Below the pieces are notes generated by a model. It was not told where the DNA came from and searched no databases. It worked only from the letters and a program-made list of their open reading frames with translations. A stretch of DNA of 64,000 bases from a virus. Shown in pieces: positions 33,199 through 51,396 of the stretch. The position numbers and the translations under genes were made by a program. The stretch is from positions 32,001 through 96,000 of IMG/VR virus record IMGVR_UViG_3300034021_001440. The stretch is one strand, 5' to 3'. Each line of letters opens with the position of its first letter. Positions within the stretch are counted from its first letter, which is position 1.

Positions 33199-33223
33199 CC
33201 AGGTATCCCGACAGTTGCGTTTC

Positions 33224-36200: not shown

Positions 36201-37417
36201 CCACTGGTGGTGCCGTCCGATCCGCTGGTTTCACAGACCTCACCGGTGGCACGGAAACACGCCCCCTCAACATGGCGCTGTTGCCTTGCATCAAGTACGA
36301 AATCACGGTTGCTCCGACCACTCCGTCTGCCTGCGGCATCCCCTGCGCCTGCGTGACGGGCAAAGGTGCCATCATCGTGGGAAGCGCCCCGAACACCCCG
36401 ACCGCTCTGCCCGTCGGTTTCAACTGTCAGATTCTGGTTGCAAATAGCAACTGTGCGCAGGGTCTGGCCTGGGCGAACCCGCCTGGTGTGAACTATCAGC
36501 AGTGTGCGGCTCCTGCCTTCACAACACCCGTCAACAGCCTCTGTCAGATCGCTGCCATCTCGATCAACACCTTGGGCAACCCTGTGCAGGTCAATGCCTA
36601 TGGCGATGCCTATAGCAGCGGGTCCAACTGGTTTGGTTGCGTCTTCATTCGCCGTTGCGGTTCTCCCAACTCGGACTCCCGTTCGTCTTGGCTGGAAAAC
36701 AATGCGGGCAACATCAACGAAGCCTTTGCCCTCTCCGTTATTGACAACCCTCCCGCTGGCACCTATTGCTACGCCCTCATGATGTGCGTCCCGAGTGGAT
36801 CCGGGGGCAACATCATCGCTGGCGAAGCCGGTGGTCCGGTTCTCAACGCTGTGGAACTCGGTTCTGCCTGCTACACCAACGCCATTCCTTGCACCGCCAT
36901 CACCGCCAAAGGCGACCTGATTGCCGGTGTGGGTATCAACTCCCCCACCGCTCTGCCCGTTGGCAGCTGTGGTGCGGTTCTTCGCCCCAACCCTGCCTGT
37001 GCCACTGGCCTGCAGTGGTGTGAAGTCGGCAAGACTGCCAGCGGCGTTGTCAGCACTGTCAACGTTGCGAACCAGTGGGTCACGATCGATGACATGCAGT
37101 TTGGTTTCTGGAACGGATTCAAGAGCTTCGTTATGAGGTTGGCACCGGGCTGCGCTTATAGTCTTGGTGCAACTTGGACCAGCTGCTATATTGGCGACGG
37201 TGGTGGATTTGGTTCCACATACTATCGAGATCAGACCCTGGTCGCCGGTACTTGGCGATTCATCTGGTGCGACCTGAACTACAGTCAGCACGGCCCGACT
37301 CAAAACGCAACCATCTGCCTGCTTGGCCCCGCTGGCGCCACTCGCATGTATCAGTTCATGGGCATGGTCAGTTCAGCTTACTGCTGCAACCCCATCTCCG
37401 TCACTCGCGTCCTCTGA
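33224..37417 (+). CDS. Cys-rich tail fibre with internal collar domain
   Basis: GTGLTGGPITT repeats, NTAVG repeats, collar motif FNLPDLRAVFIRG. Confidence 0.85.
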   Translation: MAVPNPPFNPNNRIPNDPFNSINVPTFNTSFGPMIIGSGLSISGIGNPQTLSATGGGGGAVNQVLGGVGISTSPSTGTVYVNNTGVTSLTAGSGIAISASTGAITISASGVGTGTVTSVATGTGLTGGPIIASGTISLANTAVSPGTYNYSTITVDAQGRLTAASSGAAPVTNIATGTGLTGGPITTTGTIALANTSVTAGSYTNANIVVDAQGRITSASNGTACTGTVTSVATGTGLTGGTITTAGTIALADTAVSPGTYNFATITVDQQGRLTAASTGTPPTPGSTTVTSPITNSGTALNPNIGIQTATTGQLGAVQVGSNIDVSSGVISVASTVGVATAVSNLGVTTITDNVTSTSCNSALSANQGRALQQQINSLLVTGTVELAGTIDGSTGFVATTTSLGSSKGYTVGAVLPAASATTVNSYVIVTTPGTMTPPGGVSTAVTRGDWWLVTQSSPGVYVWSYLNVGFDPPMASTTTAGLVELATDAETQAGTSASLAVTPAGACATYIPFTQLTAKGALISASGANTALTVTVGSDGQVLTACSASPSGLCWTASSVPAIPCACITAKGDLITGTAANTPIALPVGTNGQILYADSACSTGLTWGTAPITCLAFDAKGDLLTGFGPDSYGILGVGSNGCVLVACSACAQGMCWGRGVNSATPTCEGIVYGCTLATATALGCNALTTGTGANSVAIGTLALTNSGAGTDNVAVGYASLCCNTTGSCNTVVGSCANCLATATTGNTAVGTKVLSCNNTGNNNTAVGSLALRDNASGSYNTSVGWAAGFNLTSGCYNLALGINTCLPNPAGNCQLAIGFGSGTNWLTGDSSKHIQPGAGIRDCAGCLGCAGQFLCSTGTAIQWVTGVGDTPVGTVNWFGAATAPVGWLVADGRAVSRTAYAALYAVIGTTYGTGDGTSTFNLPDLRAVFIRGVDNAGGTARGVDPGRAFGSLQANSVQSHCHQVQVIAGGAGRPEWLFPNNACPIGAGYPAPTGGAVRSAGFTDLTGGTETRPLNMALLPCIKYEITVAPTTPSACGIPCACVTGKGAIIVGSAPNTPTALPVGFNCQILVANSNCAQGLAWANPPGVNYQQCAAPAFTTPVNSLCQIAAISINTLGNPVQVNAYGDAYSSGSNWFGCVFIRRCGSPNSDSRSSWLENNAGNINEAFALSVIDNPPAGTYCYALMMCVPSGSGGNIIAGEAGGPVLNAVELGSACYTNAIPCTAITAKGDLIAGVGINSPTALPVGSCGAVLRPNPACATGLQWCEVGKTASGVVSTVNVANQWVTIDDMQFGFWNGFKSFVMRLAPGCAYSLGATWTSCYIGDGGGFGSTYYRDQTLVAGTWRFIWCDLNYSQHGPTQNATICLLGPAGATRMYQFMGMVSSAYCCNPISVTRVL

Positions 37418-37461: not shown

Positions 37462-39828
37462 ATGGGTTTGTCGACTCCCTTTAATCCCAACTCCCCCATT
37501 CCAAACAACCCATTTTACGCTCCGCAGTTTTCCACTATCAACTCCAGCATCGGTCCGCTGATCCTTGGCACCGGTCTGAACATTTCGGCAGTTGGAAACC
37601 CTCCCACTCTGAGCACCAGCGGGGGAGGGGGCGGCGGATCCGTTTCGCAAATCATCGCTGGCACCGGCATTAGTGTGTCCCCCTCGGGCGGTACCGGCAA
37701 CGTCATTGTCAATAACACCGGCGTTCTCAGCCTCGTGGCTGGCACGGGCATTTCCGTGTCGTCTGTGGGCGGTGTCTACACCGTGAACGCCACAGGTGGC
37801 GCTGGTACTGTCACCCTGATCAACTCTGGCTCCGGTCTGACCGGTGGCCCGATCACCACAAGCGGCACTCTGGCTCTGAACTACGCCTGTGTGGTTGACC
37901 CCACCGACTTTACTGGCAAAGGTGCTATCCTTGCTGGTACCGGTGTGGGCACATACAGTGCTCTGGCTGTTGGCGCAAACGGTCTGGTTCTGACTGCTTG
38001 TTCGACCGCTGCCAACGGCGTTTGCTGGGCTTCGGCAAGCGCGAACGACATTCCCTGCTCCGCGATTACTGCCAAAGGTGCCCTGATTACTGGCACCGGC
38101 CCTTCCACCCTGTTCTCTCTGGGCGTGGGCACCAACGGCCAAGTCCTGACTGCCTGCTCGGCTTGTGGCCCTGGCATGTACTGGACCAACCCGACCGCAG
38201 TTGTTCCTGACGCCACCCCGTCCGTTGAGGGCATCGTCTACGGCATCACCGACGCTGTCACAACATTCAACGTGGGTCTGGGCTCGGACGTTCTGGCTGC
38301 TGGTCCGGCGACTGGGCCTGGCAACGTTGCCATTGGTACTCAGGCTGGATACAATGTCACTTCGGGTCAGCAAAATAACCTCATCGGTGCTGGTGCTGGT
38401 TGCGCCATCACCTCTGGTAATGCGAACAATTTCCTCGGATTCCTGGCTGGTGGTGCTGTAACGACTGGTTCCCAGAATGTTCTGCTGGGCAACAGTGCAG
38501 GCAGCTCTTATACAACCGAACAGGGCAACGTCATCATCGGTGGCAACGCTGGCGTGGCTGGTGTCTGCAACCAAATCCTTCTGTCGGACGGCATCGGCAC
38601 CCTGCGTCTTCAACTCAACCAGTGCGGCGCTATCTCTCCGGACGGTACCACCTACGGTACTGCCGGTCAGGTCCTGTGCTCGGGTGGTCCAAACACCACC
38701 TGGGGTTGGACCTCTAGTTCCACCTCTGAAGCTACCTCCGTCGCTGCTGGCATCATCAAGGGTTGCACCGACAACACCCTTTGTAACTCCTTCTTCGGTT
38801 GCTGTGCTGGTCCTGGTCCCCTCTCTACAGGTGCTTGCAACACTGCTCTGGGATATCGGGCAGGTGCTGCTATCTCGACTGGTAATGTAAACACCATTGT
38901 CGGATTTGGGGCTGGTTGTACCATTAGCAGCGGTAACTGGAACGTCATCATGGGCCATAGTGCCGGTGACTCCATTACATCGGGTGGTTGCAACATTGCC
39001 ATCGGTGGTGCTGCTGGTGCATCCATTACCACCACCTGCGAGAACGTTCTGATTGGTGACCTTGCAGGCACTTCTCTGACCGGTCTTCAAAACGTTGGTG
39101 TGGGAACACAAGCACTTTGTGCCGTTGGTGCTGCAAATGCCAACACTGCTCTGGGTCACAACGCGGGTAGCAGAATCACAATTGGTAACTGCAACGTTGC
39201 CGTGGGCTATCTTGCCCTGGGCTCGCCGATAACGACCATCACCGGCAACAACAACGTGTCTGTTGGCGCTGGTAGTTTCAACAGCTTGACCTCCGGTAGT
39301 GCCAACATCTCGATTGGTAATGGAAACAATAACCCTCTGACAACCGGTGGTTGCAACATCAGCATTGGCTCGACTAATGGCCTGCCAGCTGCAAACACCT
39401 GCTACACAACCATCATCGGAAACGGCATCGTTGCCACGCAAAGTTGCCAGGTGATTATTGGATGGGTGACCGGTGGAACTTGTGCCTCCTTTGTCAACGG
39501 CTCGCTCAACTGGACCGTGAGCTCTGATGCTCGAATGAAGGATAAGGTCGAAGACTTCACCGAGGGTCTTGAACTTATTGAAAAACTTCAACCCCGGAGC
39601 TATAACTTCATCGGCGGTTGCGAAGAGGGTGACGAAGGCGTTCCTGCTTTCGGCCTCATCGCTCAAGAAGTGGCTGAAGCCATTGCCGGAACCAGTGCTG
39701 AGGGTCGCGGTCTGATTGGTGGAACGGAAGAAAACGGATACGGAATTACTTATCCTCAGCTTATCATTCCTCTGATCAACGCTGTCAAGGAATTGTCGGC
39801 CCGAGTGAAAGAACTCGAGTCCAAATGA
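37462..39828 (+). CDS. Cys-rich tail fibre with C-terminal S74 intramolecular chaperone
   Basis: SSDARMKDKV..GLIAQEV..LINAVKELSARV. Confidence 0.85.
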   Translation: MGLSTPFNPNSPIPNNPFYAPQFSTINSSIGPLILGTGLNISAVGNPPTLSTSGGGGGGSVSQIIAGTGISVSPSGGTGNVIVNNTGVLSLVAGTGISVSSVGGVYTVNATGGAGTVTLINSGSGLTGGPITTSGTLALNYACVVDPTDFTGKGAILAGTGVGTYSALAVGANGLVLTACSTAANGVCWASASANDIPCSAITAKGALITGTGPSTLFSLGVGTNGQVLTACSACGPGMYWTNPTAVVPDATPSVEGIVYGITDAVTTFNVGLGSDVLAAGPATGPGNVAIGTQAGYNVTSGQQNNLIGAGAGCAITSGNANNFLGFLAGGAVTTGSQNVLLGNSAGSSYTTEQGNVIIGGNAGVAGVCNQILLSDGIGTLRLQLNQCGAISPDGTTYGTAGQVLCSGGPNTTWGWTSSSTSEATSVAAGIIKGCTDNTLCNSFFGCCAGPGPLSTGACNTALGYRAGAAISTGNVNTIVGFGAGCTISSGNWNVIMGHSAGDSITSGGCNIAIGGAAGASITTTCENVLIGDLAGTSLTGLQNVGVGTQALCAVGAANANTALGHNAGSRITIGNCNVAVGYLALGSPITTITGNNNVSVGAGSFNSLTSGSANISIGNGNNNPLTTGGCNISIGSTNGLPAANTCYTTIIGNGIVATQSCQVIIGWVTGGTCASFVNGSLNWTVSSDARMKDKVEDFTEGLELIEKLQPRSYNFIGGCEEGDEGVPAFGLIAQEVAEAIAGTSAEGRGLIGGTEENGYGITYPQLIIPLINAVKELSARVKELESK

Positions 39829-39890: not shown

Positions 39891-39915
39891 GTGTTTATCT
39901 AGACGTTTGCCAGCA

Positions 39916-42900
39916 ATGGGATTGCCGACGCCCCCCTTTAATCCAAACACCCCAATCCCAAACAATCCCTTCCAGAGCCCTCAAACATACACTGTCAATG
40001 GTCTAAGTGGCCCCACGATTGTTGGTGATGGTCTATATGTTGACTATGCCAATCTATCAATCAATTCCTCCGGCTCCCTAATCACTGGCATCATTGCCGG
40101 TTTGGGCATCAGTGTTTCAAGCACGGTTGGCAATATCACAGTCAGCAACACTGGTGTTCTCAGCCTGAACGCTGGACCTGGTATCAGCATTTCCGGGTCT
40201 ACAGGAAACATCACAATTAGTTCCACAGGTAGCGGCAGCGGCACGGTCACTAGCATCACTGCGAGTACAGGACTTACTGGTGGAACCATTACCACAAGTG
40301 GGACTATAGCACTGGCAAACACTACGGTGAACGCTGGCAGCTACACTTTTGCTTCGTTTACGGTAGATCCGCAAGGTCGTCTAACCGCAGCAAGCAATGG
40401 TTCCGTACCCACTGCAACTCCTACGACCTTAGGGTTGACTTTTGCAGGACCTGGTGACCTTATTACAGGTAATAGCTCTACCGGATATTGCGCTCTAAGT
40501 TCAATACCATCAGTAACAATTTCAGAACGCAACACAGCGTTAGGTGTGCTGGCTCTCAGACTTCTCACCAATGCCGTGGATAACACAGCAGTTGGTTACT
40601 CGGCTCTTAACTCGAACCTCATAGGGAGTTACAACACCGTTATTGGTTCCAATGCTGGTTTTAGCGTAACTGGATCAAAAAACGTTGTTATCGGTGCCTA
40701 CGTCAATCCTGCGAACGTCGCAGGGAACTGTCAACTTGCTATTGGACCTTCTGGTGGTTTCTGTTGGCTCACAGGTAACAGCACTCTAGCTATTAAACCA
40801 GGCGCCGGAATCATTGACTGCGCCGGTTCCTGCGGAACCGCTGGTCAGGTTCTGATGAGCAACGGCTCGAACGCCATTTGCTGGGGGACTGTGGCTGCAG
40901 GCAGCGGCATTCCTTGTGCTTGCATCACAGCCAAAGGCGCTCTTGTCACAGGCACCGCTGCCTCAACTCCGGTTGGTCTTACCGTTGGAACCGACGGTCA
41001 AGTTCTGACAGCCTGTGCAGCTTGCACGACAGGTTTGACTTGGGCTGCCGGTGGTGGCGGTGGAAGTGGCACAGTGACCGACATCACTGCTGGCACCGGA
41101 CTTACGGGCGGCACAATCACAACGTCTGGAACCGTCGCTCTTGACACCGCCTGCGTTATTCCGCCTACGGCTTTCACACAGAAAGGCGAAATGCTAATTG
41201 GTACAGGAGCTGGTACGTATACTGTGGTGGCCCCGGGAACACCCGGTCAGTACCTTACTTACACCAGTCCAAAAGTCGGTTGCAATGCCATATGGACGGA
41301 CCCGGTGGGGGTTGCAACACCTGGTGATCTTGGTTTGGGTTACGGTTTCTACGACACCTCCACCTCTCCCAATAGCATGGCCGCAGGGCAAGGTTCCTTA
41401 GGCAACCTTATTGGAGGAGATAGTAATACGGCCCTGGGTTTTCAAGCTCTTGTAAACTTAAGCACCGGGTCTCGAAATATTGGTCTTGGGTTCTGTGCCG
41501 GAAGTGGCCTAACTACTGAGACAGACAACGTCTTAATTGGATCTTCAGCAGGTAACTTTGACACTCTCACTCAAACAGTAGCTATCGGCTCTTATGCGGG
41601 AACAAAAGCAACAAATAGCGTCTTCATCGGTTACTGTGCGATTCAGTTCGGTCTCAGAAGCTGCAATTCCGTCGTAATCGGCGCCAATGCACTAAACGAC
41701 AACGCATACACAGGTTGTCAGCTTGTTGCTATCGGACCTAACGTTTCTATACCTGCTTTCAACACCAGCTGCCAACTTGCTATTGGTTTCTCTGCCACTG
41801 ACAATTGGCTCACCGGTGACCCCACCAAAGCCATCAAACCCGGTGCTGGTATTATCGACTGTGCCGGTTCCTGCGGAACCGCTGGTCAGGTTCTCTCTTC
41901 AACGGGAACGAACAATATCCTGTGGGCTTCTGGCGCTGCTGCTGCTGCTGCAACTCCGAATAGTTTGGGCACTATTTACGGATGTACTACTACCACATCC
42001 AACTCTTTTCTCGGGTACCGTGCTGGAACCTCTCAAACCGACAACTGCCGAGCTACCTTGGTGGGGAGAGATGCTGGATTCCTTTTAACGACGGGTGACG
42101 GTAACACCGGTGTAGGTAGCACCGCATTGTGTAGCGTAGTGACGGGTTGCTTTAACACCGCCGTCGGTGACAGAGCAATGCAACGTGCCGGATCGGTAGC
42201 TCAAGCAAATACCGCGCTCGGAGTAGTTGCTCTTGAGGATGTTACAGGTGCTTATAACGTAGCTCTGGGTGTTGAGGCTGGTCTCCAGCTCCTTGCTGGA
42301 AACTGCAACGTGTTTTTAGGTGCCGTTGCCGCCCGAGACAATACATCGGGTAACAGAAATGTTGTTATTGGCCCAAATACCACCACCTCTACCTTAACGG
42401 TTAGCTGCGAGCTTGTTATCGGGTATAACGCAGGTCAAAACTGGTTGACGGGTGATAGCACCAAAGCCATCAAACCCGGTGCTGGTATTATCGACTGTAC
42501 AGGTTCCTGTGGTACTGCGGGTCAAGCTTTGCTGAGTGACGGTGCTAACGCAGTTTGCTGGGGATCCGTAAGTGCTGCTAAAGCCTGCCCGACGACACTC
42601 GGAACGGTGTATGGATACGTGGGCACAAACGTTAAAACCGATGCCAGCATAGGTATCGGCCTATGTTCCATGGTGTCGTCCACTCCAACGAACACCCCAA
42701 CCAACGCAGCATTGGGTTTTGGCACTCTTTGTTCTCTGACTACCGGCGGCGGTAACGTCGCAATGGGTTGGCGCGCTCTCGTTACGATGACGACTGGTAG
42801 TGGAAACACTGTGGTCGGTGCTCAGGCTGGTACCGCAGCGAGCGGGACTGAAAACGCGTTTGTAGGGAGTCAGTCAGGGTGTCAGGTAGCGGGCAACCAA

Positions 42901-43626
42901 AACTCATTTTTTGGAATATGCTCAGGAGCCACTCAAGTCAGCGGCGACAGCAACGTGGCAATCGGTTTTCGCACCGCACTGGCTAGCACCACCGGAAGCT
43001 GCCAACTTGCCATCGGTTTCTCTGACACTGAGAATTGGCTGACTGGTGACAGCACCAAGGCCATTAAACCCGGCGCTGGAATCATTGACAGCACTAACGT
43101 GTGTGGCACGGCAAACCAAGTTCTGGTCTCCACAGGCGCCAACGCAATTCAATGGAAATCAGTCAACTCGGCACTGGCCGTGCCGAACTACGGTTCATTC
43201 AACAGTACAACCACGCAGACTGTCGGTACCATCAACGTCGGACAACCTATTACACTCAGCACAGTCTCAGCCACTGGCTTCTCAATCGTTGGAGGAAGCC
43301 AAATCACAGCAGCCTCAGCTGGCACATACAACATCCAAATCTCCCTTCAAATAATCTCCACGAGTGGTGGTGGTGGCCTCGTCGAAGTCTGGTTTGTTAA
43401 AAATGGCACGGCTATCACTAACTCAAACACTCGTTACTCGGTCAAAAACGCCAACGAGGAGGAAGTGGCCGCACTCAACCTCGTCGAGACTCTCACTGCT
43501 GGTCAAAACATTCAAGTCTACTGGGCCAGCGACAACGTCAATATGACCTTGGCAACACTTACAAGCACCATGGGTGGCCCCGCCATTCCGTCAGCCATTG
43601 TGACTGTCGTTCCGGTTGGAGCCTAA
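39916..43626 (+). CDS. Cys-rich tail fibre with four repeated modules and C1q/BclA-like C-terminus
   Basis: Four copies of WLTGxxTxAIKPGAGIID; C-terminus paralogous to the 5168 fibre. Confidence 0.85.
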   Translation: MGLPTPPFNPNTPIPNNPFQSPQTYTVNGLSGPTIVGDGLYVDYANLSINSSGSLITGIIAGLGISVSSTVGNITVSNTGVLSLNAGPGISISGSTGNITISSTGSGSGTVTSITASTGLTGGTITTSGTIALANTTVNAGSYTFASFTVDPQGRLTAASNGSVPTATPTTLGLTFAGPGDLITGNSSTGYCALSSIPSVTISERNTALGVLALRLLTNAVDNTAVGYSALNSNLIGSYNTVIGSNAGFSVTGSKNVVIGAYVNPANVAGNCQLAIGPSGGFCWLTGNSTLAIKPGAGIIDCAGSCGTAGQVLMSNGSNAICWGTVAAGSGIPCACITAKGALVTGTAASTPVGLTVGTDGQVLTACAACTTGLTWAAGGGGGSGTVTDITAGTGLTGGTITTSGTVALDTACVIPPTAFTQKGEMLIGTGAGTYTVVAPGTPGQYLTYTSPKVGCNAIWTDPVGVATPGDLGLGYGFYDTSTSPNSMAAGQGSLGNLIGGDSNTALGFQALVNLSTGSRNIGLGFCAGSGLTTETDNVLIGSSAGNFDTLTQTVAIGSYAGTKATNSVFIGYCAIQFGLRSCNSVVIGANALNDNAYTGCQLVAIGPNVSIPAFNTSCQLAIGFSATDNWLTGDPTKAIKPGAGIIDCAGSCGTAGQVLSSTGTNNILWASGAAAAAATPNSLGTIYGCTTTTSNSFLGYRAGTSQTDNCRATLVGRDAGFLLTTGDGNTGVGSTALCSVVTGCFNTAVGDRAMQRAGSVAQANTALGVVALEDVTGAYNVALGVEAGLQLLAGNCNVFLGAVAARDNTSGNRNVVIGPNTTTSTLTVSCELVIGYNAGQNWLTGDSTKAIKPGAGIIDCTGSCGTAGQALLSDGANAVCWGSVSAAKACPTTLGTVYGYVGTNVKTDASIGIGLCSMVSSTPTNTPTNAALGFGTLCSLTTGGGNVAMGWRALVTMTTGSGNTVVGAQAGTAASGTENAFVGSQSGCQVAGNQNSFFGICSGATQVSGDSNVAIGFRTALASTTGSCQLAIGFSDTENWLTGDSTKAIKPGAGIIDSTNVCGTANQVLVSTGANAIQWKSVNSALAVPNYGSFNSTTTQTVGTINVGQPITLSTVSATGFSIVGGSQITAASAGTYNIQISLQIISTSGGGGLVEVWFVKNGTAITNSNTRYSVKNANEEEVAALNLVETLTAGQNIQVYWASDNVNMTLATLTSTMGGPAIPSAIVTVVPVGA
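40726..43130 (+). repeat. four dispersed ~130-nt coding repeats (approx. 40726, 41767, 42404, 42997)
   Basis: gccggttcctgcggaaccgctggtcaggttct identical in copies 1 and 2; accaaagccatcaaacccggtgctggtattatcgactgt identical in copies 2 and 3. Confidence 0.8.
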
Positions 43627-43661: not shown

Positions 43662-45098
43662 ATGACGGTAACCAGTGTACTTACGGGGGTGGGGCTCACA
43701 GGTGGTCCGATTACATCAACCGGCACCATCAGTTTGCTTCCCCCTGTTGGAGGAAACATCGGCGGCGTAAAACCAGGCGCAAACGTTATTATCGCCTCAG
43801 ACGGCACAATCAGCGTTGCCCCTCCCAACCCTGGCACCATCACTGGCGTCTCGGTTGGCGGGGGCTTGGTTGGCGGGGGCACCACTGGCACCGTGACCGT
43901 GGCGGTGAACTTTGCCTCTCCCGCTGAAGTTGCCGCAGGCATTGTCAACTATAAGGCAATCGCCCCGAGCTCCCTGTCTGCGAAGCAAGGCAGCCTCACC
44001 GAGTCAGGCTTCGTCCAGCTTTCAGACGCTTATGCCTCTGTCGACTCCACTCGGGCGGCAACACCCACCGGCGTCAAGGCAGTCTATGACATTGCCACGG
44101 CGGCACTGCCGAAGTCCGGCGGCACGATGACTGGTGTCATCAACTTTGCTGCTGGGCAAACTTTCCCTGGCACGGCTTTCCCGATTGCCACCCCGTTGTC
44201 TCTGGGTGTTATCAAAGTTGGCTCTGGCTTGAGTGTCAACGGCTCGGGTCTGGTCACCACCGTCAACAATGGCACCGTGACTGCCATCACCCCTGGCCCT
44301 GGCCTGGGTGCTCCGGCAACCGGCAACGTGATCACCAATACCGGCACCATTCGCCTGCTGCCCCCGACCACTGACGGTCTCACCCTGGGCGGTGTGAAAG
44401 CGGGTGACAACATCAACATTGCCAACGACGGCACCATCAGCGCAGAAGGGTTCCTTCTCACGAACAACCCGTATGCCTATAACAGCTACATCTTCCCGCC
44501 TCCTGCGGTTCCTTCGGCTGCTCCTGGCCTCAACGGTTCTTTCTTGCGTTTGAAAAATCGCGTCACTGGTGAAGTGGAGTGGGCAACGAACAATGGCATC
44601 ACTTCGATCACAGCAGGCACGGGTCTGACCGGAGGCACAATCACCTCCACAGGGACAATCGGTCTGGCAACCACAACCGTGATTCCTGGCACGTATGGCG
44701 CCACCGGGCTGATCTCCACTTTCACCGTGGATTCCCTGGGTCGCGTCGTTGATGCTGGTGAGGCCAATCCTTATGCCCCGTTCCAAATTGCGACGCAAAG
44801 TGCTCCTCCCAACCTTGTGCTGGACTTTGCAGACAACAACCTGAACTGGACCTGGACGATGCTTGCCAACACGGTGATGCAAGCTCCGCAAAATGCCCAG
44901 AGTGGTCAGCGTGGAAGCATTTTGATCATTCAGAATCCCACCGTGCCCAAGGTGCTCACCTGGCAGGCCAACTGGAAATGGGCCAATGCAACTCCCGTGA
45001 TGATCACTGCGGTGGCAAGTGCTCGTGATATGTTTGAGTTTGTTGTGATTGACTCAACGAACATTCTTATCACTAACGTCATCAAAAACTACGGCTGA
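43662..45098 (+). CDS. tail fibre protein (Cys-free)
   Basis: LGGVK.G.N..I..DGTIS repeats, ALPKSGGTMTG. Confidence 0.8.
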   Translation: MTVTSVLTGVGLTGGPITSTGTISLLPPVGGNIGGVKPGANVIIASDGTISVAPPNPGTITGVSVGGGLVGGGTTGTVTVAVNFASPAEVAAGIVNYKAIAPSSLSAKQGSLTESGFVQLSDAYASVDSTRAATPTGVKAVYDIATAALPKSGGTMTGVINFAAGQTFPGTAFPIATPLSLGVIKVGSGLSVNGSGLVTTVNNGTVTAITPGPGLGAPATGNVITNTGTIRLLPPTTDGLTLGGVKAGDNINIANDGTISAEGFLLTNNPYAYNSYIFPPPAVPSAAPGLNGSFLRLKNRVTGEVEWATNNGITSITAGTGLTGGTITSTGTIGLATTTVIPGTYGATGLISTFTVDSLGRVVDAGEANPYAPFQIATQSAPPNLVLDFADNNLNWTWTMLANTVMQAPQNAQSGQRGSILIIQNPTVPKVLTWQANWKWANATPVMITAVASARDMFEFVVIDSTNILITNVIKNYG

Positions 45099-45126
45099 TT
45101 TACTCTCCCTCCCACTCCGCTAAACT
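45099..45126 (+). promoter_or_regulatory. sigma70-like promoter TTTACT-N16-TAAACT
   Basis: Same hexamers and spacing as at 59339. Confidence 0.6.
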
Positions 45127-45160
45127 GATAGCGGTATACCACCCCAACCTTTACCTACCA

Positions 45161-46093
45161 ATGGCAGATAAAAAATACTGCATCTTCCAAATTCAAGGCG
45201 GACTTGGAAAGCACGTTGCAGCGACGGCAGTCGCCCAAGTCATCAAGAAGGCTCACCCGGATCGCGAACTGATTGTCGTATGCGCCTGGCCTGAACTCTG
45301 GACGAGTCTCCCATTTGTTTATCGCGTATTTCCTCTGGGAAATACTCAGTATTTTTACGAAGAATATGTGGAAGGCAAGGACTCCCTGATCTTTGCCCAG
45401 GAGCCATACTTCACCACCACCCACATTAACAAGACTCATCGCCTGGTTGAAACCTGGTGCATGATCTATGGTCTGAAGTATGACGGTGAGCAACCGGTTC
45501 TGAAAATCAACCCCGAGCAGCGCAAGACCATTCGCAACTTCTATGAACCGAAGTTCGAAGGCAAGCCGCTGATGCTCATCCATACGAACGGCGGTCTGTT
45601 TCAGAACGAGCGTCCCTTCTGCTGGAGTCGGGATATGCCCATCGAAGTGGCACAAAAAGTCTTCAACCACTTCAAGAAAAGTCACACCGTGATGCAAATC
45701 ACCCGCCCTGCTTCGCCGCAGATTGAGGGTGCTTTCATTCGCAACGAGCCTCTCTCCAACACGGAACTGGCTGGTTTGGTGGAGTTTTCTGACAAGCGCC
45801 TCCTGATTGACTCTTCGCTTCAGCACATGGCTGCTGCGTTCGGGCTGCCTTCCACCGTGCTCTGGAATGCCACTTCGTCTGTGATCTTTGGTCACGCGAT
45901 GCACGACAACATTCAAGCCAAAGAAAAGCCGCAGAAGTCTCTGCCTGGAAGCTATCTCTTTGACTATCAGTTTGATGCCAACGAGAATGAGTTTCCGTAT
46001 GAGGACGACGACCTCAAAAATCTCTACGACCTTGACCGCATCATTGCGTCGCTGGAAAAGCAAACCAATGAGGTGAAGAAGGGTTTCGCATGA
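45161..46093 (+). CDS. GT-B glycosyltransferase, GT9/heptosyltransferase-like
   Basis: GGLGKHVAATAV..IKKAHPD..IVV and LLIDSSLQHMAAAFGLPSTVLW match GT9-type GLGD and DSG..H.AAA...P motifs. Confidence 0.75.
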   Translation: MADKKYCIFQIQGGLGKHVAATAVAQVIKKAHPDRELIVVCAWPELWTSLPFVYRVFPLGNTQYFYEEYVEGKDSLIFAQEPYFTTTHINKTHRLVETWCMIYGLKYDGEQPVLKINPEQRKTIRNFYEPKFEGKPLMLIHTNGGLFQNERPFCWSRDMPIEVAQKVFNHFKKSHTVMQITRPASPQIEGAFIRNEPLSNTELAGLVEFSDKRLLIDSSLQHMAAAFGLPSTVLWNATSSVIFGHAMHDNIQAKEKPQKSLPGSYLFDYQFDANENEFPYEDDDLKNLYDLDRIIASLEKQTNEVKKGFA

Positions 46094-46884
46094 ACCGCTT
46101 CGTGTTTCTTGCTGGGCTGCCTCGCACAGGTTCCACTGTGCTTGGCGCCCTTTTGAATCAGCACCCGTTTCTGTATCCAACGGAGACGTCGATGGTTCAC
46201 CGCCACATTCACGAAGTTTCAAACTTTTTTGTAGGAGAGTATCCTCTCTACGACACGAACGACCCCAACTCACCCCTGTGGGGAATCGTGAGAGGTATTC
46301 TGCAAGGGGCGTATGAACACGTCAAGGGGAAAGTAGTCATTGAGAAAAGCAGGGGGTGGTCGTGGGAAATCGACATCCTGAGAAAGGCTTTGGGGGAGCC
46401 ACCCAAGTTCGTCGCCACTGTGCGGTCCATTCCCGAAATTATCTCTTCTTTCATCCTCCTGGCCAATAAAATTGGCGATGACTCAAAGATTCATACACAG
46501 TTGAGGGAGACAGGTTATCCCATAACCACCTGGAACCTGTCGCACTTCATCTGGGAAAAGTACATCGATGCTGACTGGCAAGGTTTCCGTCAAGCATACG
46601 AAACAAACACTGACTTGTTTCACCTGATTGAGTACGACGACCTTGTGCAAAAACCTGAGGAAGTTCTCAATAATTTTTATTCTTTTATTGAGGTGCCTCC
46701 CATTAAAGTTCACACGGACTCCCTTGTGCGCGGTGCCGTCGAAAATGACGATGCCTTTGGGTTGCCAGGACTGCACGACATCCGCTCAGACTTGTCTCGC
46801 ACTTCTCCCCCCGCACTTGAAGTTCTCGGAGAAGAGTGCTACAACTTTTGGGAGGCTCAGCGCCTGGAATTTTGGCGAGGGTAA
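46090..46884 (+). CDS. PAPS-dependent sulfotransferase family protein
   Basis: GLPRTGST..LLNQHP, VRSIPEIISS, IEYDDLVQKPEE. Confidence 0.85.
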   Translation: MNRFVFLAGLPRTGSTVLGALLNQHPFLYPTETSMVHRHIHEVSNFFVGEYPLYDTNDPNSPLWGIVRGILQGAYEHVKGKVVIEKSRGWSWEIDILRKALGEPPKFVATVRSIPEIISSFILLANKIGDDSKIHTQLRETGYPITTWNLSHFIWEKYIDADWQGFRQAYETNTDLFHLIEYDDLVQKPEEVLNNFYSFIEVPPIKVHTDSLVRGAVENDDAFGLPGLHDIRSDLSRTSPPALEVLGEECYNFWEAQRLEFWRG

Positions 46885-46886
46885 AA
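46879..46886 (+). promoter_or_regulatory. GGGTAAAA box
   Basis: Gly-stop overlap; 30 nt before ATG 46909. Confidence 0.7.
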
Positions 46887-46908
46887 TCTAAAAAAGATTG
46901 TCACATCA

Positions 46909-47403
46909 ATGGCTGCGCTCAATTTCCCAACCTCACCAACACCGGGTCAGCTGTATCCAAGTCCAGCAATCTCTGGTGTGTCGCAATACCAGTGGGACAA
47001 CACTGCTGGTGTGTGGAACACCGTTGCCACTTTCGTGAAGCTCAATAATCAAAGTGCGTACAACAGTTATGTTTGGCCAGTCGCAGACGGTCTGGCTGGG
47101 CAGCAACTGGAAACGGACGGTTCCGGGAATCTGTACTGGGATGCCGCTTCGAATCCGACCTTCTTCTATCTGCAACTGGACAGTTCAGTTCCGTTCGACG
47201 GAATTCAAACAATTTTCACCCTCATCGATCCTGCCACACTCAACGCCTACTCCCCGACGCCAAACTCCAACATCGAGGTTTTCCTCGGCGGTGTTCCTCA
47301 GCAGTTTGGCACAGCCTACACCGTGGCTGGTTCGACAATTACCTTCACCAACCCGCCCATCGCAGGCACTTCGTTCTTTGCGACAACCGTCATTCAAGGG
47401 TAA
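46909..47403 (+). CDS. short fibre/adaptor protein
   Basis: NFPTSPTPGQLY N-terminus; FDG....F.L..VFLGGVPQ repeat as in the 23365 protein. Confidence 0.7.
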   Translation: MAALNFPTSPTPGQLYPSPAISGVSQYQWDNTAGVWNTVATFVKLNNQSAYNSYVWPVADGLAGQQLETDGSGNLYWDAASNPTFFYLQLDSSVPFDGIQTIFTLIDPATLNAYSPTPNSNIEVFLGGVPQQFGTAYTVAGSTITFTNPPIAGTSFFATTVIQG

Positions 47404-47405
47404 AA
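47398..47405 (+). promoter_or_regulatory. GGGTAAAA box
   Basis: Gly-stop overlap; 36 nt before ATG 47434. Confidence 0.7.
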
Positions 47406-47433
47406 GCAGTCAAGTGTAACTGACGAATTAACT

Positions 47434-50400
47434 ATGGCGTTAACTCGCGCTCAACTACTGATGGGAAATTGCGCACAGGGATGCGTACTTCCTGGTCAGG
47501 TTCAAGGCGTAAAACAAGGCGCTGGTGTTTGTATCGCTAACGACGGTACAATCTCTTTCTTTGCTGGAACTTCCACAGGCGTAGTCAAAACCAATAATCC
47601 TACGGCTTTCAATAGCTACATCTGGCCCAATGCCGACGGCATCGCTGGCTCTCAGCTGACGACTGACGGCCTGGGCAACCTCGCCTGGGGTCCTGCTCCG
47701 GGCGACCTCTTCATCAAACTGCAACCGACTTCCACCCAGACTGGCGCGTTTGCGAACATCACCGGTCAGGCTGGCTGCGTGGCGATGACTTTCATCGCGG
47801 CGCCGAATCAGTTTGCGATTCAAACCTGCGACGGTGACGCAAGCCTCTTCGGTGTGACCGCTGGCCGTGGTTCCGGTTGCGTGGCGACCAACACTGCTTT
47901 CGGTGCTTGCAGCCTCTTTACAAATACGACTGGAAACAGCAACACAGCCATCGGCTACAAAACGCTGTGCTCCAACCAGGTCGGCAACTGCAACACTGCA
48001 ATCGGCTTCTGCTCCCTTGTTTCCAACTCGGCAGGATGCCTCAACACTGCGGTCGGCTATCAGAGTCAGACCTTCACTTCGACCGGAAACTGCAACACTT
48101 CGATCGGTTTCTGCTCACTCTACAATAACACCAACGGCGGTTGCAACACTGCCGTCGGTAATGAAACTCTTTATTGCAACACCAGCGGTCTGTGCAACAT
48201 CGCCGTCGGCCCTCGTGCTCTGTACTGCAATGTGAGCGGCTGCTGCAACATTGCTGCTGGCCTGTGCGCTCTGCAAAATAATACCACAGGATGCAGCAAC
48301 CTGGCGATTGGTGCCTTTGCTTCCAACTGCAACACGATTGCCTGCTTCAACTTTGCCATCGGCGACTGTGCCCTGTTCAACAACCAAACGGTTGGTTGCA
48401 ACATGGCGATCGGCTGCAAGGCGATGTTCTGCACGACCATCGGTACTCGCAACCTGGCCATCGGTACTTGCTCGCAGTATAACACCACAACCGGTTGCTA
48501 TAACACGACCCTCGGTCACTGCTCGATTGGACGCGGTGTGAACGCTGGCTGCTGCAACGTGGCTGTTGGCTTCTGCTCTCTGTTTGAAAACACAGCCGGT
48601 CTGTGCAACATTGCCATCGGTCAAGAGACCATGGCCTGCAACACCTCCGGTTGCTGCAACATTGGCGTGGGTGCCTTTGCCCTCCGCTCGAACTCTTCTG
48701 GCTGCTGCAACATCGGTATCGGTTCACAGGCTCTGTGCTGCCTGACCACCGGTAGCTGCAACGTCGGCGTGGGAACTTTTGCCCTCTGCGGCAACACCGC
48801 TGGTCTGTCCAACACTGCTGTTGGCGACAGTGCAATGCAGAATAACAACACCGGTTGCTTCAACGCGGCTGTTGGTTCTGACTCCCTGTGCTGCATTGTG
48901 AGCGGTTGCTATAACACCGCTGCTGGCTCTTGCTCGATGGTCAATACCACGGTTGGAGCTTCCAACGTGGGTGTTGGTTTCCGTGCAATGGAGGCCAATC
49001 AGGACGGTTCTTGCAACGTGGCTGTTGGTCAGTGTGCTCTGGGAGCTTCTTCGACAGCTGACTGCAACGTTGTTCTGGGCTTCGAGGCTGCAGCGGATAA
49101 CTGCGGAAATCGCAACGTTGTGATTGGCCATCAGTCCGGCTTCAACGGTGGTGGCAATCCTTCGGACAACGTCATCGTCGGTGCTCTTGCTGGCTGCAGC
49201 ATGACGACTGCCTGCTGTGTGACCCTCGTCGGTGCGTGCGCTGGACAGACCATTACAAACGGTGACTTCAACACTCACATCGGTGCCCTGGCTGGTTTTG
49301 GAACCAACTACACTGGCGTCTGCAACTCTTCGCTTGGTTTGCGTTCTCTCTGCGCACTGACCACTGGCGCCTGCAACACTGCCGTTGGTGCGGATGCAAT
49401 GTGCTCGGCAACGAGCGGTTGCCTCAACGTGGCAGTGGGTAATCAGAGCCTGCAAAGTTTGGTCTCAGCCTGTGGAAACACTGCACTGGGTCAAACGGCA
49501 ATGCAAAATGCCGTCAGCGGCTGCTTCAACGTTGCCGTCGGTACTTGCTCGCTGATCAACAATGCTTCCGGTTGCTACAACACCGTTGTTGGTGTGGAAG
49601 CTGGCGGTGCTGGCGGTGCAAGTTTCTCTTGCGCTACATTCGTTGGTTTCAACGCTGGCGTTGCGGCCACCACAGCTCAGCTGGCGACGGCGGTTGGTTG
49701 GTGCTCCGCTGCCAACTTGAGCACTGGAAATTGCAACACTGCTGTTGGTGCTTGCAGCATCTTCAACCTGAGCACCGGTTGCTTTAATACAGCGGTTGGG
49801 AACAACGCCGGGGTTAGCCTTACCACGGGTGGGTGCAACACTGCTATTGGTTTCAACGCTCTTTGCAGTGCTGCGAGCACAGACGCAAACACCGCTGTTG
49901 GTTGGTGTTCAGCAGCCTCTCTGACGACCTGGCCAAACACTGCTGTGGGCTTCAGGTCCCTGACCACAATGGCCACGGGACAATACAACACGGCAATTGG
50001 CACCGGGTCTTTGCGTGACTTGGCTTCTGGTGTCAACAACACCGCCGTGGGTGATGGGGCTGGTAAGTGTCTTGCCTCTGGTTCGTGCAACACTCTTATT
50101 GGCTCAAACACCGGGCAGCTTGCTGGTTCGAGCTTCAACAATGCCACTCTCGTAGGTAATGGGGCCGGAGCTAATCTTTCGACAGCGCCTCTGGCAACTG
50201 CTGTTGGTTTCTGTGCTGCTCAAGCTCTTAGTACTGGACTCTACAACACTGCCGTGGGTGGTTGTGCCTTGTTCAGTCTCACATCCGGTAATCTCAACAC
50301 CGCAGTGGGCATGAACGCCGGTAAAAACATGACCACGGGGTGCTACAACACTGCGTTTGGTCAGGGAGCCCTGAGAGACGTAACAACGGCCAACCAGAAC

Positions 50401-51378
50401 ACAGGTTTTGGAACCGGGGCTCTTCGTCAACAAACCGGGGGATGCAACACTGCAGTGGGTGCCAGCTCCGGTCAAGGTCAACCGGGATCCACTGGTGCTT
50501 GTAACACCACTGTTGGTTACTTTGCCGGTTCCTGCATCACGACTGCCACTGGTGTCTCAGCCATGGGATGGTGCGCCGCCTGTTCTGTTTCTACAGGACT
50601 GAACGCAACGGTTTTTGGATCTGAAGCTGGATGCACTCTCTCAACTGGTATCAACAACACTCTAATTGGCCAACGCGCTGGTTGCGCAATAACCACAGGA
50701 GCCAGTAACACTGCGGTTGGTCAAGCCGCTGGTAAAGAAGGTATAGGAGGAACAAACAACGTTTTGATGGGAGACAACTCCGGTCGTTGTATGACGGGCG
50801 GTAACTTCAACTCCGTACTTGGGTCTCAAGCCTTTAATGGTGCAACTGGTTCTACGCCTAACAACCTGGGTCAGTTCAACACGGCCCTTGGCTATCAGGC
50901 CATGGGTATCTTCACGGGTGGGAATAACAACATTGCCATCGGTTATGCATCTGGCTATACTTTCTGCAACCTGGCGGGCCTCAACAACCAGATTGTGATG
51001 GGTAATGCCTCACATACCAATGCCTTCATTCAAGTCGCATGGACGGTTGTTTCCGACGAGCGCAAGAAAAAGATCAAAGGACCCGTGGCTCTCGGCCTGG
51101 ACTTTGTCAAAAACCTTGAACCCATCGAATACCAGTTTATCGACGAAGAGACTCAAGAGATCAAAGACGAGACATACCGTTATGGTTTCTCAGCTCAAAA
51201 GGTTCGTGCCCAGGAAGTTGACCCTGAGCATCCGGTGATTGTGGGTGGCTCGGATGAAAAAGGTTGGAATCTTACCACCGACTACATGTTGCCGCCTCTG
51301 GTCAATGCCATTCAAGAGCTCTCTGCTCAAGTTGAAGAATTGAAAGCAAAACTTGCTGCCCTCGAGGGTAAAAATTAG
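47434..51378 (+). CDS. extremely Cys-rich tail fibre with 17-aa repeats and S74 chaperone
   Basis: Tandem NTAVGxxALxxNxxGxx repeats; VSDERKK..YGFSAQ..LVNAIQELSAQV. Confidence 0.85.
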   Translation: MALTRAQLLMGNCAQGCVLPGQVQGVKQGAGVCIANDGTISFFAGTSTGVVKTNNPTAFNSYIWPNADGIAGSQLTTDGLGNLAWGPAPGDLFIKLQPTSTQTGAFANITGQAGCVAMTFIAAPNQFAIQTCDGDASLFGVTAGRGSGCVATNTAFGACSLFTNTTGNSNTAIGYKTLCSNQVGNCNTAIGFCSLVSNSAGCLNTAVGYQSQTFTSTGNCNTSIGFCSLYNNTNGGCNTAVGNETLYCNTSGLCNIAVGPRALYCNVSGCCNIAAGLCALQNNTTGCSNLAIGAFASNCNTIACFNFAIGDCALFNNQTVGCNMAIGCKAMFCTTIGTRNLAIGTCSQYNTTTGCYNTTLGHCSIGRGVNAGCCNVAVGFCSLFENTAGLCNIAIGQETMACNTSGCCNIGVGAFALRSNSSGCCNIGIGSQALCCLTTGSCNVGVGTFALCGNTAGLSNTAVGDSAMQNNNTGCFNAAVGSDSLCCIVSGCYNTAAGSCSMVNTTVGASNVGVGFRAMEANQDGSCNVAVGQCALGASSTADCNVVLGFEAAADNCGNRNVVIGHQSGFNGGGNPSDNVIVGALAGCSMTTACCVTLVGACAGQTITNGDFNTHIGALAGFGTNYTGVCNSSLGLRSLCALTTGACNTAVGADAMCSATSGCLNVAVGNQSLQSLVSACGNTALGQTAMQNAVSGCFNVAVGTCSLINNASGCYNTVVGVEAGGAGGASFSCATFVGFNAGVAATTAQLATAVGWCSAANLSTGNCNTAVGACSIFNLSTGCFNTAVGNNAGVSLTTGGCNTAIGFNALCSAASTDANTAVGWCSAASLTTWPNTAVGFRSLTTMATGQYNTAIGTGSLRDLASGVNNTAVGDGAGKCLASGSCNTLIGSNTGQLAGSSFNNATLVGNGAGANLSTAPLATAVGFCAAQALSTGLYNTAVGGCALFSLTSGNLNTAVGMNAGKNMTTGCYNTAFGQGALRDVTTANQNTGFGTGALRQQTGGCNTAVGASSGQGQPGSTGACNTTVGYFAGSCITTATGVSAMGWCAACSVSTGLNATVFGSEAGCTLSTGINNTLIGQRAGCAITTGASNTAVGQAAGKEGIGGTNNVLMGDNSGRCMTGGNFNSVLGSQAFNGATGSTPNNLGQFNTALGYQAMGIFTGGNNNIAIGYASGYTFCNLAGLNNQIVMGNASHTNAFIQVAWTVVSDERKKKIKGPVALGLDFVKNLEPIEYQFIDEETQEIKDETYRYGFSAQKVRAQEVDPEHPVIVGGSDEKGWNLTTDYMLPPLVNAIQELSAQVEELKAKLAALEGKN
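51366..51373 (+). promoter_or_regulatory. GGGTAAAA box
   Basis: 31 nt before ATG 51397. Confidence 0.6.
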
Positions 51379-51396
51379 CCATAAAGGATGCACACA

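Follow-up and report, generated by a model that had tools for sequence, protein, structure and literature searches.

Organization of the locus

The window, that is, the whole 64,000-nucleotide stretch of viral DNA that was analyzed, derives from a cyanophage relative. It encodes a GT9-like glycosyltransferase (GT; P0001) and a sulfotransferase (P0002), both on the + strand and surrounded by fiber genes, with the start of the sulfotransferase gene overlapping the stop of the GT gene by 4 nt. The initial annotation had described a coupled pair of this kind amid the fiber genes, and the gene positions, the overlap, the fold of P0001 and the Pfam match of P0002 bear this out. The features are as follows.

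5168..10387, +, 1739-aa structural protein with 29 Cys, densest in aa 800-1400
31196-33157, Cys-poor fiber with 2 Cys
33215..37417, +, Cys-rich fiber, 1400 aa, 54 Cys
37462..39828, +, Cys-rich fiber, 788 aa, 25 Cys, Peptidase_S74 C-terminus
39907..43626, +, Cys-rich fiber, 1239 aa, 35 Cys, same repeat family as the 1314-aa fiber
43662..45098, +, Cys-free fiber, 478 aa, 0 Cys, Phage_fiber_2 repeat; directly 5' of the GT gene, an internal contrast
45133..45140, +, GGTATACC, about 21 nt 5' of the GT start, at the site where other genes bear GGGTAAAA
45161..46093, +, GT9-like GT-B glycosyltransferase (P0001, 310 aa), from fold and donor-binding signature
46090..46884, +, PAPS-dependent sulfotransferase (P0002, 264 aa, PF13469), from Pfam and PAPS-loop motif
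46879..46886, +, late-type GGGTAAAA within the 3' end of the sulfotransferase gene, 5' of the 164-aa gene
46909..47403, +, 164-aa Cys-free protein; residues 93-159 resemble parts of tail-fiber and virion structural protein families
47434..51378, +, 1314-aa fiber (P0003), 87 Cys, 17-aa repeats, Peptidase_S74 intramolecular chaperone at the C-terminus; candidate substrate
54439-56715, Cys-poor fiber with 1 Cys

In some close relatives the gene for the 164-aa protein is kept immediately 3' of the GT. The late-type motif GGGTAAAA occurs in 20 copies where 1.45 would be expected, every one on the + strand, and lies about 20-30 nt 5' of the start in most genes inspected. It is absent 5' of the GT gene, where GGTATACC stands in its place. 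The pair had been assigned to a non-late promoter class; the missing late motif agrees with this, and the GGTATACC variant may mark a separate class. That the GT–sulfotransferase pair lacks the late-type motif borne by the fiber genes counts against a role in fiber tailoring.

Fold and conserved residues of the two enzymes

The AF2 model of P0001 (pLDDT 94) was compared with known GT structures. GT9 chains (3tov, WaaF, TibC and WaaC) gave Z scores of 18.3-23.3 with rmsd 3.3-4.0 over 246-276 residues, whereas the best non-GT9 GT-B fold reached Z 11.5. The top ten Foldseek matches were all GT9 enzymes, with GT9-like NDH subunits appearing from rank 25. As modeled, P0001 is thus a GT-B fold closest to CAZy family GT9, as had been proposed from the sequence. 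It is the fold that settles the assignment, because the PF01075 (GT9) match is sub-threshold (12.5 bits vs a cut-off of 22, E = 0.088). Even a weak PF01075 match was found in only 6 of 73 P0001 relatives, and none of the NCBIfam models matches P0001.

The GT9 donor pattern D-(T/S)-G-x-x-H-x-A-A-A was judged to be present in P0001 as D217-S-S-L-Q-H222-M-A-A-A. In the hhalign alignment LLIDSSLQHMAAAFG of P0001 lies opposite VSVDTGLSHLTAALD of WaaC, placing DSSLQHMAAA on WaaC DTGLSHLTAA. Conservation of D217, S218 and H222 is 90% or higher among 73 diverse relatives. G13, G14 and K17 of the N-terminal loop G-G-L-G-K17 are nearly invariant in relatives, and a gapless comparison of the loop only sets P0001 L-G-K17-H opposite M-G-D13-V of WaaC, which holds the catalytic Asp13 in its β1–α1 loop. 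From its sequence and model, the enzyme looks functional.

P0002 scores 50.2 bits with PF13469 (Sulfotransfer_3), whose cut-off is 27, and carries a 5'-phosphosulfate-binding (PAPS) loop, GLPRTGST, at residues 9-16. Among solved structures, its best match is the CurM sulfotransferase (E = 1e-4), while tyrosine sulfotransferases match in the loop alone. A sulfotransferase was found in 45 of 56 GT-centered loci. It is an accessory part of the GT system, since pelagiphage-type phages have the GT without it.

Cysteine pattern of the fibers

The 87 Cys of the 1314-aa fiber make up 6.6% of its residues, with about 2.2 Cys per repeat over aa 200-500. Its period is 17 aa, with 28 anchor spacings of exactly 17. 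Parsing of 105 repeats placed Cys at positions 6, 7, 10, 11, 16 and 17 only, all of them variable; none occurred at N1, x2, A3, V4, G5, A8, L9, N12, T13, x14 or G15. The repeat unit first described, with about two Cys at its variable positions, was therefore recovered, as was the division between four other Cys-rich fibers (25-54 Cys) and nearly Cys-free ones (0-2 Cys). The C-terminal domain matches Peptidase_S74 (PF13884) at residues 1207-1265 with 30.6 bits against a cut-off of 22. In a low-confidence AF2 model (pLDDT 55) each 17-aa repeat contributes two strands to a β-roll resembling the YadA head. One fiber relative matches PF05658, and several are named ‘trimeric autotransporter adhesin’ by JGI.

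Cysteines are also inserted in a second module type of the fiber at 33215..37417 (C-x-C-I-T-A-K-G ... S-A-C-x-x-G-L-x-W), and in the protein at 5168..10387 the same modules occur both with and without Cys. Typical members of the fiber family are almost Cys-free (median 0.13%). Within the same repeat family, Cys makes up 3.4% of GT-linked repeats and 0.6% of GT-free ones; no enrichment was seen for Ser, Thr or Asn, and Arg was slightly up. Across the six hot positions, repeats with 0, 1, 2 and 3 Cys numbered 218, 176, 57 and 6, close to the 222, 172, 54 and 8 expected, and no positive pair coupling between these positions was found. The Cys residues behave as independent sites, which fits poorly with disulfide pairs. 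Because Cys alone separates the GT-linked fibers and the sites are independent, the fiber cysteines are favored as the concern of the enzyme.

Association of the GT with Cys-rich proteins

Twenty-seven viral contigs with consecutive C-N-T-A-[VI]-G fiber repeats were compared with a Cys-blind sample of 77 contigs from the same fiber family. The GT was encoded in 16 of the 27 and in 2 of the 77 (Fisher odds ratio 54, p = 6e-10), counts that overstate the number of independent events because the contigs are related to each other. Both GT-bearing contigs of the Cys-blind sample have fibers that rank near its top in Cys content. The GT starts between -45 and +38 nt from the end of a fiber gene on the same strand in at least 9 of the 16 GT-bearing Cys-repeat contigs. 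When loci were instead centered on the GT, a protein of at least 200 aa with at least 3% Cys was present in 27 of 56 viral loci (48%), compared with 6/80 and 7/78 (8-9%) for a ≥3%-Cys protein in control loci of similar GC. The co-occurrence check set beforehand was thus strongly positive on both counts.

Nevertheless, some observations count against fiber tailoring. About half of the GT-centered loci have no Cys-rich neighbor within 10 kb. The close relatives L006, L007 and L009 retain the GT, and the fibers on their contig fragments are Cys-poor. Conversely, L299, L307 and L308 encode Cys-bearing fibers with 7-12 kb of downstream sequence and no GT. In favor of the link, S-CBWM1, the closest isolate, lacks the GT, and its fibers are Cys-poor.

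The link recurs in four GT clades sharing less than 35% identity, with unrelated Cys-rich proteins as partners. The GT tracks Cys over three unrelated protein architectures. In the cultured phage P-SSM2, PSSM2_304 and PSSM2_306 (10.1% Cys) lie just 5' of the GT-family gene PSSM2_307, whose cassette also includes the carbamoyltransferase PSSM2_308. The order in AG-345-O18 is two proteins with 9.6% and 10.7% Cys, a fiber-assembly chaperone, the GT and a carbamoyltransferase. A 31-kb pelagiphage retains the GT, whose start codon overlaps the fiber stop codon.

Cell-surface cassettes of Bacteroidota place the GT 3' of β-roll proteins with 3-6% Cys and also hold a T9SS-sorted NHL propeller protein and an FkbM methyltransferase. 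A Cys-rich neighbor was present in 28 of 56 Bacteroidota GT loci; the Cys-rich gene was upstream of the GT in 19/38 loci and downstream in 7/46. Phage superinfection exclusion cannot explain these cassettes. Recurrent GT neighbors are APS kinase, a carbamoyltransferase, a GT2–methyltransferase fusion and GT8, and the GT itself is found fused to an FkbM methyltransferase and to GT25. These neighbors and fusion partners are sugar-tailoring enzymes.

Proposed function

Since many phages and some bacteria encode the GT next to Cys-rich fiber-like proteins, these proteins are probably what it decorates, and we infer that the fiber is the likely substrate of the GT and sulfotransferase. Our best explanation, put forward tentatively, is that the two overlapping genes form a Cys-linked tailoring module for the phage's own tail fibers. 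In the infected cell, the GT would take a host nucleotide-sugar and transfer it onto the Cys-studded β-solenoid repeats. The sulfotransferase, using host PAPS, would then sulfate the attached sugar; direct sulfation of the protein is less likely. Attachment would most likely be to the many Cys at exposed, variable repeat positions, which would make it S-glycosylation, and the fibers of the released virion would be covered with anionic sugars in place of free thiols.

Cys as the acceptor, with S-linked, sulfated sugars as the simplest form, is a possibility that we hold at somewhat short of even confidence. To our knowledge every S-glycosyltransferase described so far (SunS, ThuS) has a GT-A fold and belongs to family GT2, and the known GT9 protein transferases AAH and TibC modify Ser; both points count against it. 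Of the original suggestion that the phage modifies its fiber cysteines, the association, the Cys-only difference and the independence of the sites are in its favor, and the chemistry stands as a proposal. The GT9-like family of phages and Bacteroidota could, on the same tentative footing, be a new class of GT-B protein S-glycosyltransferases, in which dozens of Cys thiols per β-solenoid fiber or adhesin chain would be loaded with sugars that partner enzymes sulfate, methylate or carbamoylate. If true, S-glycosylated virions, and likewise sulfated ones, would be known here for the first time.

Decoration of the fibers on Ser, Thr or Asn, similar to AIDA-I/TibA heptosylation or HMW1 N-glycosylation, would account equally for the gene linkage to fibers. 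The Cys would then have another task, such as locking the fibers by disulfides after lysis, binding metal or sensing redox state, and the GT would mainly keep thiol-rich, sticky fibers soluble. GT9 protein transferases do target Ser of β-helical adhesins (TibC, Z 20.1), and nearly every repeat contains N12-T13-[TS]14, so that N-T-T and N-x-S/T are abundant. However, the same N-T-T sequons are borne by GT-free fibers of the family without the enzyme, Ser, Thr and Asn are alike in GT-linked and GT-free fibers where Cys differs, and unrelated Cys-rich proteins without such repeats also accompany the GT. We regard this reading as rather unlikely.

The GT and sulfotransferase might instead remodel a host glycan (lipopolysaccharide or exopolysaccharide) during infection, blocking superinfection or keeping progeny off debris; they would adjoin the fibers only since receptor-masking and receptor-binding genes travel together. 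The usual interpretation of cyanophage sugar genes is that they alter the host cell surface (PMC12801897). The classical role of GT9 enzymes is heptosyl transfer in the LPS core, the late motif seen at structural genes is missing from the GT operon, and the neighbors GT2, GT8, GT25 and carbamoyltransferase are typical polysaccharide enzymes. Such a role predicts a link to receptor specificity, not to the Cys content of shaft repeats. It is made decidedly unlikely by the way the GT follows Cys across unrelated architectures, by the GT and Cys-rich cassettes on Bacteroidota chromosomes beside T9SS-sorted proteins, and by retention of the fiber-overlapping GT in the 31-kb pelagiphage.

It is very unlikely that the Cys merely cross-link the fibers by disulfides, with the GT–sulfotransferase pair an unrelated passenger of a hypervariable fiber region. 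Virions do inhabit oxic water, Cys-rich β-helices with disulfide ladders exist (e.g., beetle antifreeze protein), and the GT is missing from some contigs with Cys-bearing fibers. Against this, hitch-hiking hardly explains the odds ratio and the immediate downstream placement, Cys counts per repeat fit independence without pairwise coupling, and four of the five Cys-rich fibers have an odd number of Cys. That the GT-like protein acts without catalysis, as an assembly factor or chaperone of thiol-rich fibers, is scarcely credible. Its frequent position directly 3' of a fiber gene (the usual place of fiber chaperones) could speak for such a role, as could Lys17, which in the gapless loop comparison appears to occupy the GT9 catalytic Asp position. 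Against it, the signature for nucleotide-sugar binding hardly varies across hundreds of clusters, nor do other residues of the pocket, and the enzymes that constantly accompany the GT or are fused to it serve sugar tailoring.

Comparison with known systems

The proposed fiber-tailoring module resembles the heptosyltransferases AAH/TibC, which act on the bacterial autotransporter adhesins AIDA-I/TibA (GT9; PDB 4RAP, 4RB4). The GT9-type GT-B fold is shared, and in both cases a cytoplasmic enzyme is encoded beside a long β-solenoid repeat adhesin, with modification expected at many repeat positions; here the substrate relation is inferred. Here Cys instead of Ser marks the linked substrates, the context is a phage virion, and the partners are sulfo-, methyl- and carbamoyl-transferases. 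As the whole 310-aa P0001 model covers TibC residues 96-398, TibC residues 1-95 have no counterpart in P0001; these N-terminal ~95 residues bear the iron-finger and dodecamer contacts.

The best structural matches are the LPS core heptosyltransferases WaaC/WaaF (PDB 2H1H, 1PSW) and 3TOV (Z 19-23), which share the D(S/T)xxxHxAAA donor signature. Unlike WaaC/WaaF, P0001 has no lipid A-core context, is embedded in fiber genes and matches Pfam GT9 only below threshold; its N-terminal acceptor-side loop reads L-G-K in place of M-G-D in WaaC.

The glycocin S-glycosyltransferases SunS, ThuS and GccA transfer sugar to a Cys thiol of a ribosomal peptide in the cytoplasm. The likeness lies in the chemistry only, as proposed here: these enzymes are GT-A (GT2) and modify small bacteriocin peptides at one or two Cys, whereas P0001 is GT-B and its proposed target is dozens of sites on a megadalton fiber.

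Mycobacteriophage GTs next to structural genes modify the phages' own virion proteins, with glycans on the C-terminal ends of the capsid and tail-tube subunits (Freeman et al. 2023, cited in PMC12619734, PMC12801897). As described in these citing papers, that system involves a different GT family and capsid proteins, not fibers, and offers no precedent for sulfation; the present case is computational only. Sulfotransferases have been predicted computationally to modify co-encoded fiber-like proteins, in neighborhoods that combine sulfotransferase, PAPS-synthase and hydroxylase with tail-collar or collagen-like proteins (Iyer et al. 2010, PMC2938197). In that system sulfation was proposed on residues hydroxylated by 2OG-dioxygenases, whereas here, in a cassette where no dioxygenase was noted, the sulfotransferase is coupled to a glycosyltransferase.

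A glycosyltransferase–sulfotransferase pair within the fibre module

The window comes from a 112-kb IMG/VR virus record with an estimated completeness of ~51%; its large terminase shares 54% identity with the counterpart in Synechococcus phage S-CBWM1. A megablast search of the region against phage records gave no match. From ~23 kb to 57 kb of the window, the + strand carries a long series of fibre and tailspike genes. The initial annotation had placed a coupled glycosyltransferase and sulfotransferase among them, an arrangement supported by the overlap of the two genes and the Pfam match of the second.

Sugar-modifying genes of the fibre module
45161-46093, + strand: P0001, the glycosyltransferase (GT), 310 aa; its end overlaps the start of P0002 by 4 nt
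46090-46884, + strand: P0002, PAPS-type sulfotransferase; PF13469 at 50 bits against a cut-off of 27; loop G-L-P-R-T-G-S-T

The sulfotransferase gene is followed by that of a Cys-free 164-aa protein and then by that of the 1314-aa fibre P0003. Neither an APS kinase nor a GT2 enzyme was found within the 112 kb of this partial record; the module in this phage is the GT and sulfotransferase alone, and without an APS kinase there the sulfotransferase must draw on host PAPS.

The upstream motif GGGTAAAA occurs 20 times in the window against 1.45 expected by chance, always on the + strand, and lies ~20-30 nt 5' of the start in most genes examined. In this phage lineage it probably serves as the late promoter or as a signal akin to it. 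The GT gene has GGTATACC in its place.

Example sites of GGGTAAAA from the motif count
3549-3556, + strand
28291-28298, + strand
43628-43635, + strand
47398-47405, + strand

A late motif of this type also lies at 51366-51373, within the 3' end of the P0003 gene and ahead of a 95-aa ORF (51388-51675). The mechanical call of a 947-aa pectate-lyase-like tailspike (51557-54400) overlaps this ORF at its start in another frame; the true start is probably an in-frame Met shortly past 51675.

The GT is a distinct family inside the GT9 fold

Sequence profiles hardly recognise P0001: it falls in PHROG 8954 (function unknown), reaches only E = 0.088 against Pfam GT9, and gave no NCBIfam match. The AF2 model, built from an alignment of 73 diverse relatives, had a pLDDT of 94. 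Its top structural matches were all GT9: 3tov (Z 23.3), WaaF (21.4), TibC (20.1), WaaC (19.6) and the plant NDH subunit PnsB1. Non-GT9 GT-B enzymes reached Z values of at most 11.5. We conclude that the GT represents a distinct, uncharacterised family inside the GT9 fold. It has 626 clusters at 50% identity and members on at least 581 IMG/VR contigs; some members are fused to an FkbM methyltransferase or a GT25 domain.

The family retains the donor signature of GT9. The loop past strand 1 is nearly invariant and reads G-G-L-G-K17, the WaaC counterpart being S-S-M-G-D13. As hhalign of the family against WaaC covered the C-terminal signature only, the Asp-to-Lys replacement is based on a gapless comparison by eye. 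The GT is probably an active enzyme whose acceptor side is altered. Because the donor site is conserved and the genomic partners are sugar-tailoring enzymes, we argue for real glycosyl transfer. Speculatively, with Lys where an Asp base is usual, the site would be well suited to a thiolate as nucleophile.

Cysteine-rich fibres and their repeats

P0003 contains 87 Cys (6.6%) and ends in a Peptidase_S74 chaperone domain. Its repeat has a strict 17-residue period, N-T-A-V-G-x-x-A-L-x-x-N-T-x-G-x-x, with Cys confined to positions 6, 7, 10, 11, 16 and 17, in agreement with the initial description of 17-aa repeats with Cys at variable positions. The claim of four more Cys-rich fibres beside nearly Cys-free ones also held: four further structural proteins have 29, 54, 25 and 35 Cys, and others have 0-2. 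A second, unrelated fibre module also has inserted Cys, with Cys-free copies of the module in the same proteins.

The closest database matches of P0003 (39-43% identity) are repeat-driven, and there are no close orthologues. A related-locus search with the fibre alone as query found no relatives. Among the best 120 database relatives of the repeat region the median Cys content is 0.13%, a minority reaching 2-4.4%. A 273-aa fragment was modelled by AF2 from a single sequence without alignment (pLDDT 55), and only its strand periodicity was used. In this low-confidence model the Cys hot positions fall at the ends of both strands of each repeat, which fits corner or surface sites; finer detail is not reliable.

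The GT is associated with cysteine across viral loci

Related loci were sought with a 14-sequence subset of the 73-sequence GT alignment, and 56 dereplicated GT-centred viral loci were surveyed. A sulfotransferase is present in 45, mostly as the immediate neighbour on the same strand, and P0003-type fibres in 26. Other frequent neighbours are APS kinase (which makes PAPS), a carbamoyltransferase, a GT2-methyltransferase fusion, GT8, and T4 neck and gp15 genes. The GT and its partners are a sugar-tailoring kit housed within the fibre module.

At least one protein of ≥200 aa with ≥3% Cys was encoded in 27 of the 56 loci, compared with 6 of 80 T4-like loci anchored on gp15. Since the latter may be without fibre genes, a second control set anchored on fibres but GT-free was added, and 7 of its 78 loci qualified. 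The GC contents of the three sets are similar (0.37, 0.35 and 0.40), ruling out composition as the source of the Cys excess.

The association was also examined from the side of the fibres. Eighty IMG/VR fibres were collected blind to Cys by a DNA pattern in which two N-T-A-[VI]-G anchors lie at a distance of 17 codons. This sample has a median Cys content of ~0.3%. The GT occurs on 2 of 77 searchable contigs, and the fibre with the highest Cys content in the sample is on one of these two. Adding a Cys codon ahead of each anchor matched 27 contigs, mostly short fragments. The GT is on 16 of them (~14 of 24 after dereplication), directly 3' of the fibre in at least nine. The co-occurrence check proposed in the initial annotation was thus positive (odds ratio 54, p = 6e-10). 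Position by position, essentially only Cys differs between GT-linked and GT-free repeats, at 7, 10, 11, 16 and 17; this comparison gave no enrichment of Ser, Thr or Asn.

Breadth of the association in phages and bacteria

The sampled GTs form four clades at <35% shared identity, each with Cys-rich neighbours. In pelagiphages HTVC111P and HTVC112P, the stop of the repeat-fibre gene is overlapped by the GT start. Two genes ahead of this pair, and directly 5' of a large tail protein gene, lies a gene annotated as an RTX-toxin-activating lysine acyltransferase (L003:2231-2638 in HTVC111P, L004:2003-2389 in HTVC112P), which may point to lysine acylation as a second virion-protein modification.

Cultured P-SSM2 has a GT-family member in the unannotated PSSM2_307 (E = 2.5e-25), located after PSSM2_304 and PSSM2_306 and ahead of a carbamoyltransferase gene. 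PSSM2_304 and PSSM2_306 are glycine-rich, tip-like 355-aa paralogues with 36 Cys each (10.1%). They share the signature W-T-V-P-x-G-V-T ... W-G-A-G-G-G of a glycine-rich domain, and between them lies a 225-aa protein devoid of Cys. The three genes span L292:20796-23662, and all are annotated as hypothetical although this cyanophage has been studied extensively. In AG-345-O18 the genes are arranged as in P-SSM2, with an intervening fibre-assembly chaperone.

The GT family is absent from S-CBWM1, the closest isolate, whose fibres have 0-0.8% Cys. At the equivalent position, directly after a tail-fibre gene, S-CBWM1 encodes a GT4 enzyme (gp075, PF00534; L091:20749-21723); placing a sugar enzyme at the close of such modules may be a more general pattern. 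A 362,763-bp contig binned as Candidatus Paceibacterota (L335) has the GT followed by repeat fibres of 1031 and 1781 aa with 4-5% Cys, and looks like a huge phage mis-binned as a bacterium.

Among cellular genomes, the GT family occurs chiefly in Bacteroidota (Flavipsychrobacter and other Chitinophagaceae), with contigs of up to 1 Mb carrying it. The cassette there comprises a beta-roll repeat protein with 3-6% Cys, an NHL propeller protein bearing a C-terminal T9SS sorting domain, the GT and an FkbM methyltransferase, fused or separate; some versions include a sulfotransferase. The repeat protein weakly matches the grass antifreeze beta roll. Flavipsychrobacter-like MAGs carry several chromosomal copies per genome. 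In bacteria and viruses alike, Cys-rich genes are far commoner upstream than downstream of the GT.

Chromosomal cassettes in Bacteroidota MAGs
L325:4711-11652
L328:5165-11629
L353:6815-10936

Nature of the proposed modification

The simplest account would be that the GT and its partners decorate Cys-rich fibre proteins, with Cys as acceptor. Decoration of fibres by these enzymes seems fairly likely; linkage of the sugar through sulfur is a more tentative proposal, with the chances leaning somewhat against it. To our knowledge, S-glycosylation has no GT-B precedent, which counts against S-linked decoration, as do relatives that carry the GT but show no Cys-rich fibres, and a small number of contigs that have Cys fibres and lack the GT.

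Cyanophage sugar genes have been interpreted as modifiers of the host surface (PMC12801897). Modification of host LPS is unlikely as the general function of this GT: the gene is placed with fibre genes, its Cys-specific association extends over protein architectures that are unrelated, and cassettes with it occur in bacteria.

Across 457 consecutive repeat pairs of GT-linked fibres, different hot positions showed no positive coupling within a repeat or between neighbours, and the number of Cys per repeat was distributed as for independent sites. The sole coupling, of C17 with C17 of the next repeat, is partly imposed by the ascertainment pattern. A disulfide ladder is expected to have Cys in pairs, and a regular one is ruled out by the missing pair coupling.

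Comparison with known systems

In the literature searched, virion glycosylation is described solely for the capsids and tail tubes of mycobacteriophages (cited in PMC12619734). The function of phage sulfotransferases has been called unclear (PMC10580990). Sulfation of proteins resembling the tail collar has been predicted in the setting of other enzymes (Iyer et al. 2010, PMC2938197). A literature search for S-glycosylation in phages gave nothing relevant.

Tail fibres set phage host range. If Cys-linked decoration is correct, abundant aquatic phages (cyanophages, pelagiphages and T4-like phages) would coat their fibres with sugars via cysteine, and a chemistry that is not known to have been sought would underlie how virions recognise hosts, how stable they are and how they stick in seawater. 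The idea is directly testable, as the cassette is present in two cultured phages, P-SSM2 (PSSM2_304 to PSSM2_308) and HTVC111P (gp52 and gp53). The poorly understood phage sulfotransferases would gain a role, and the very short list of S-glycosyltransferases a GT-B enzyme. Moreover, adhesin glycosylation of the type performed by the bacterial autotransporter heptosyltransferases AAH and TibC would extend to viruses and to surface proteins of Bacteroidota.
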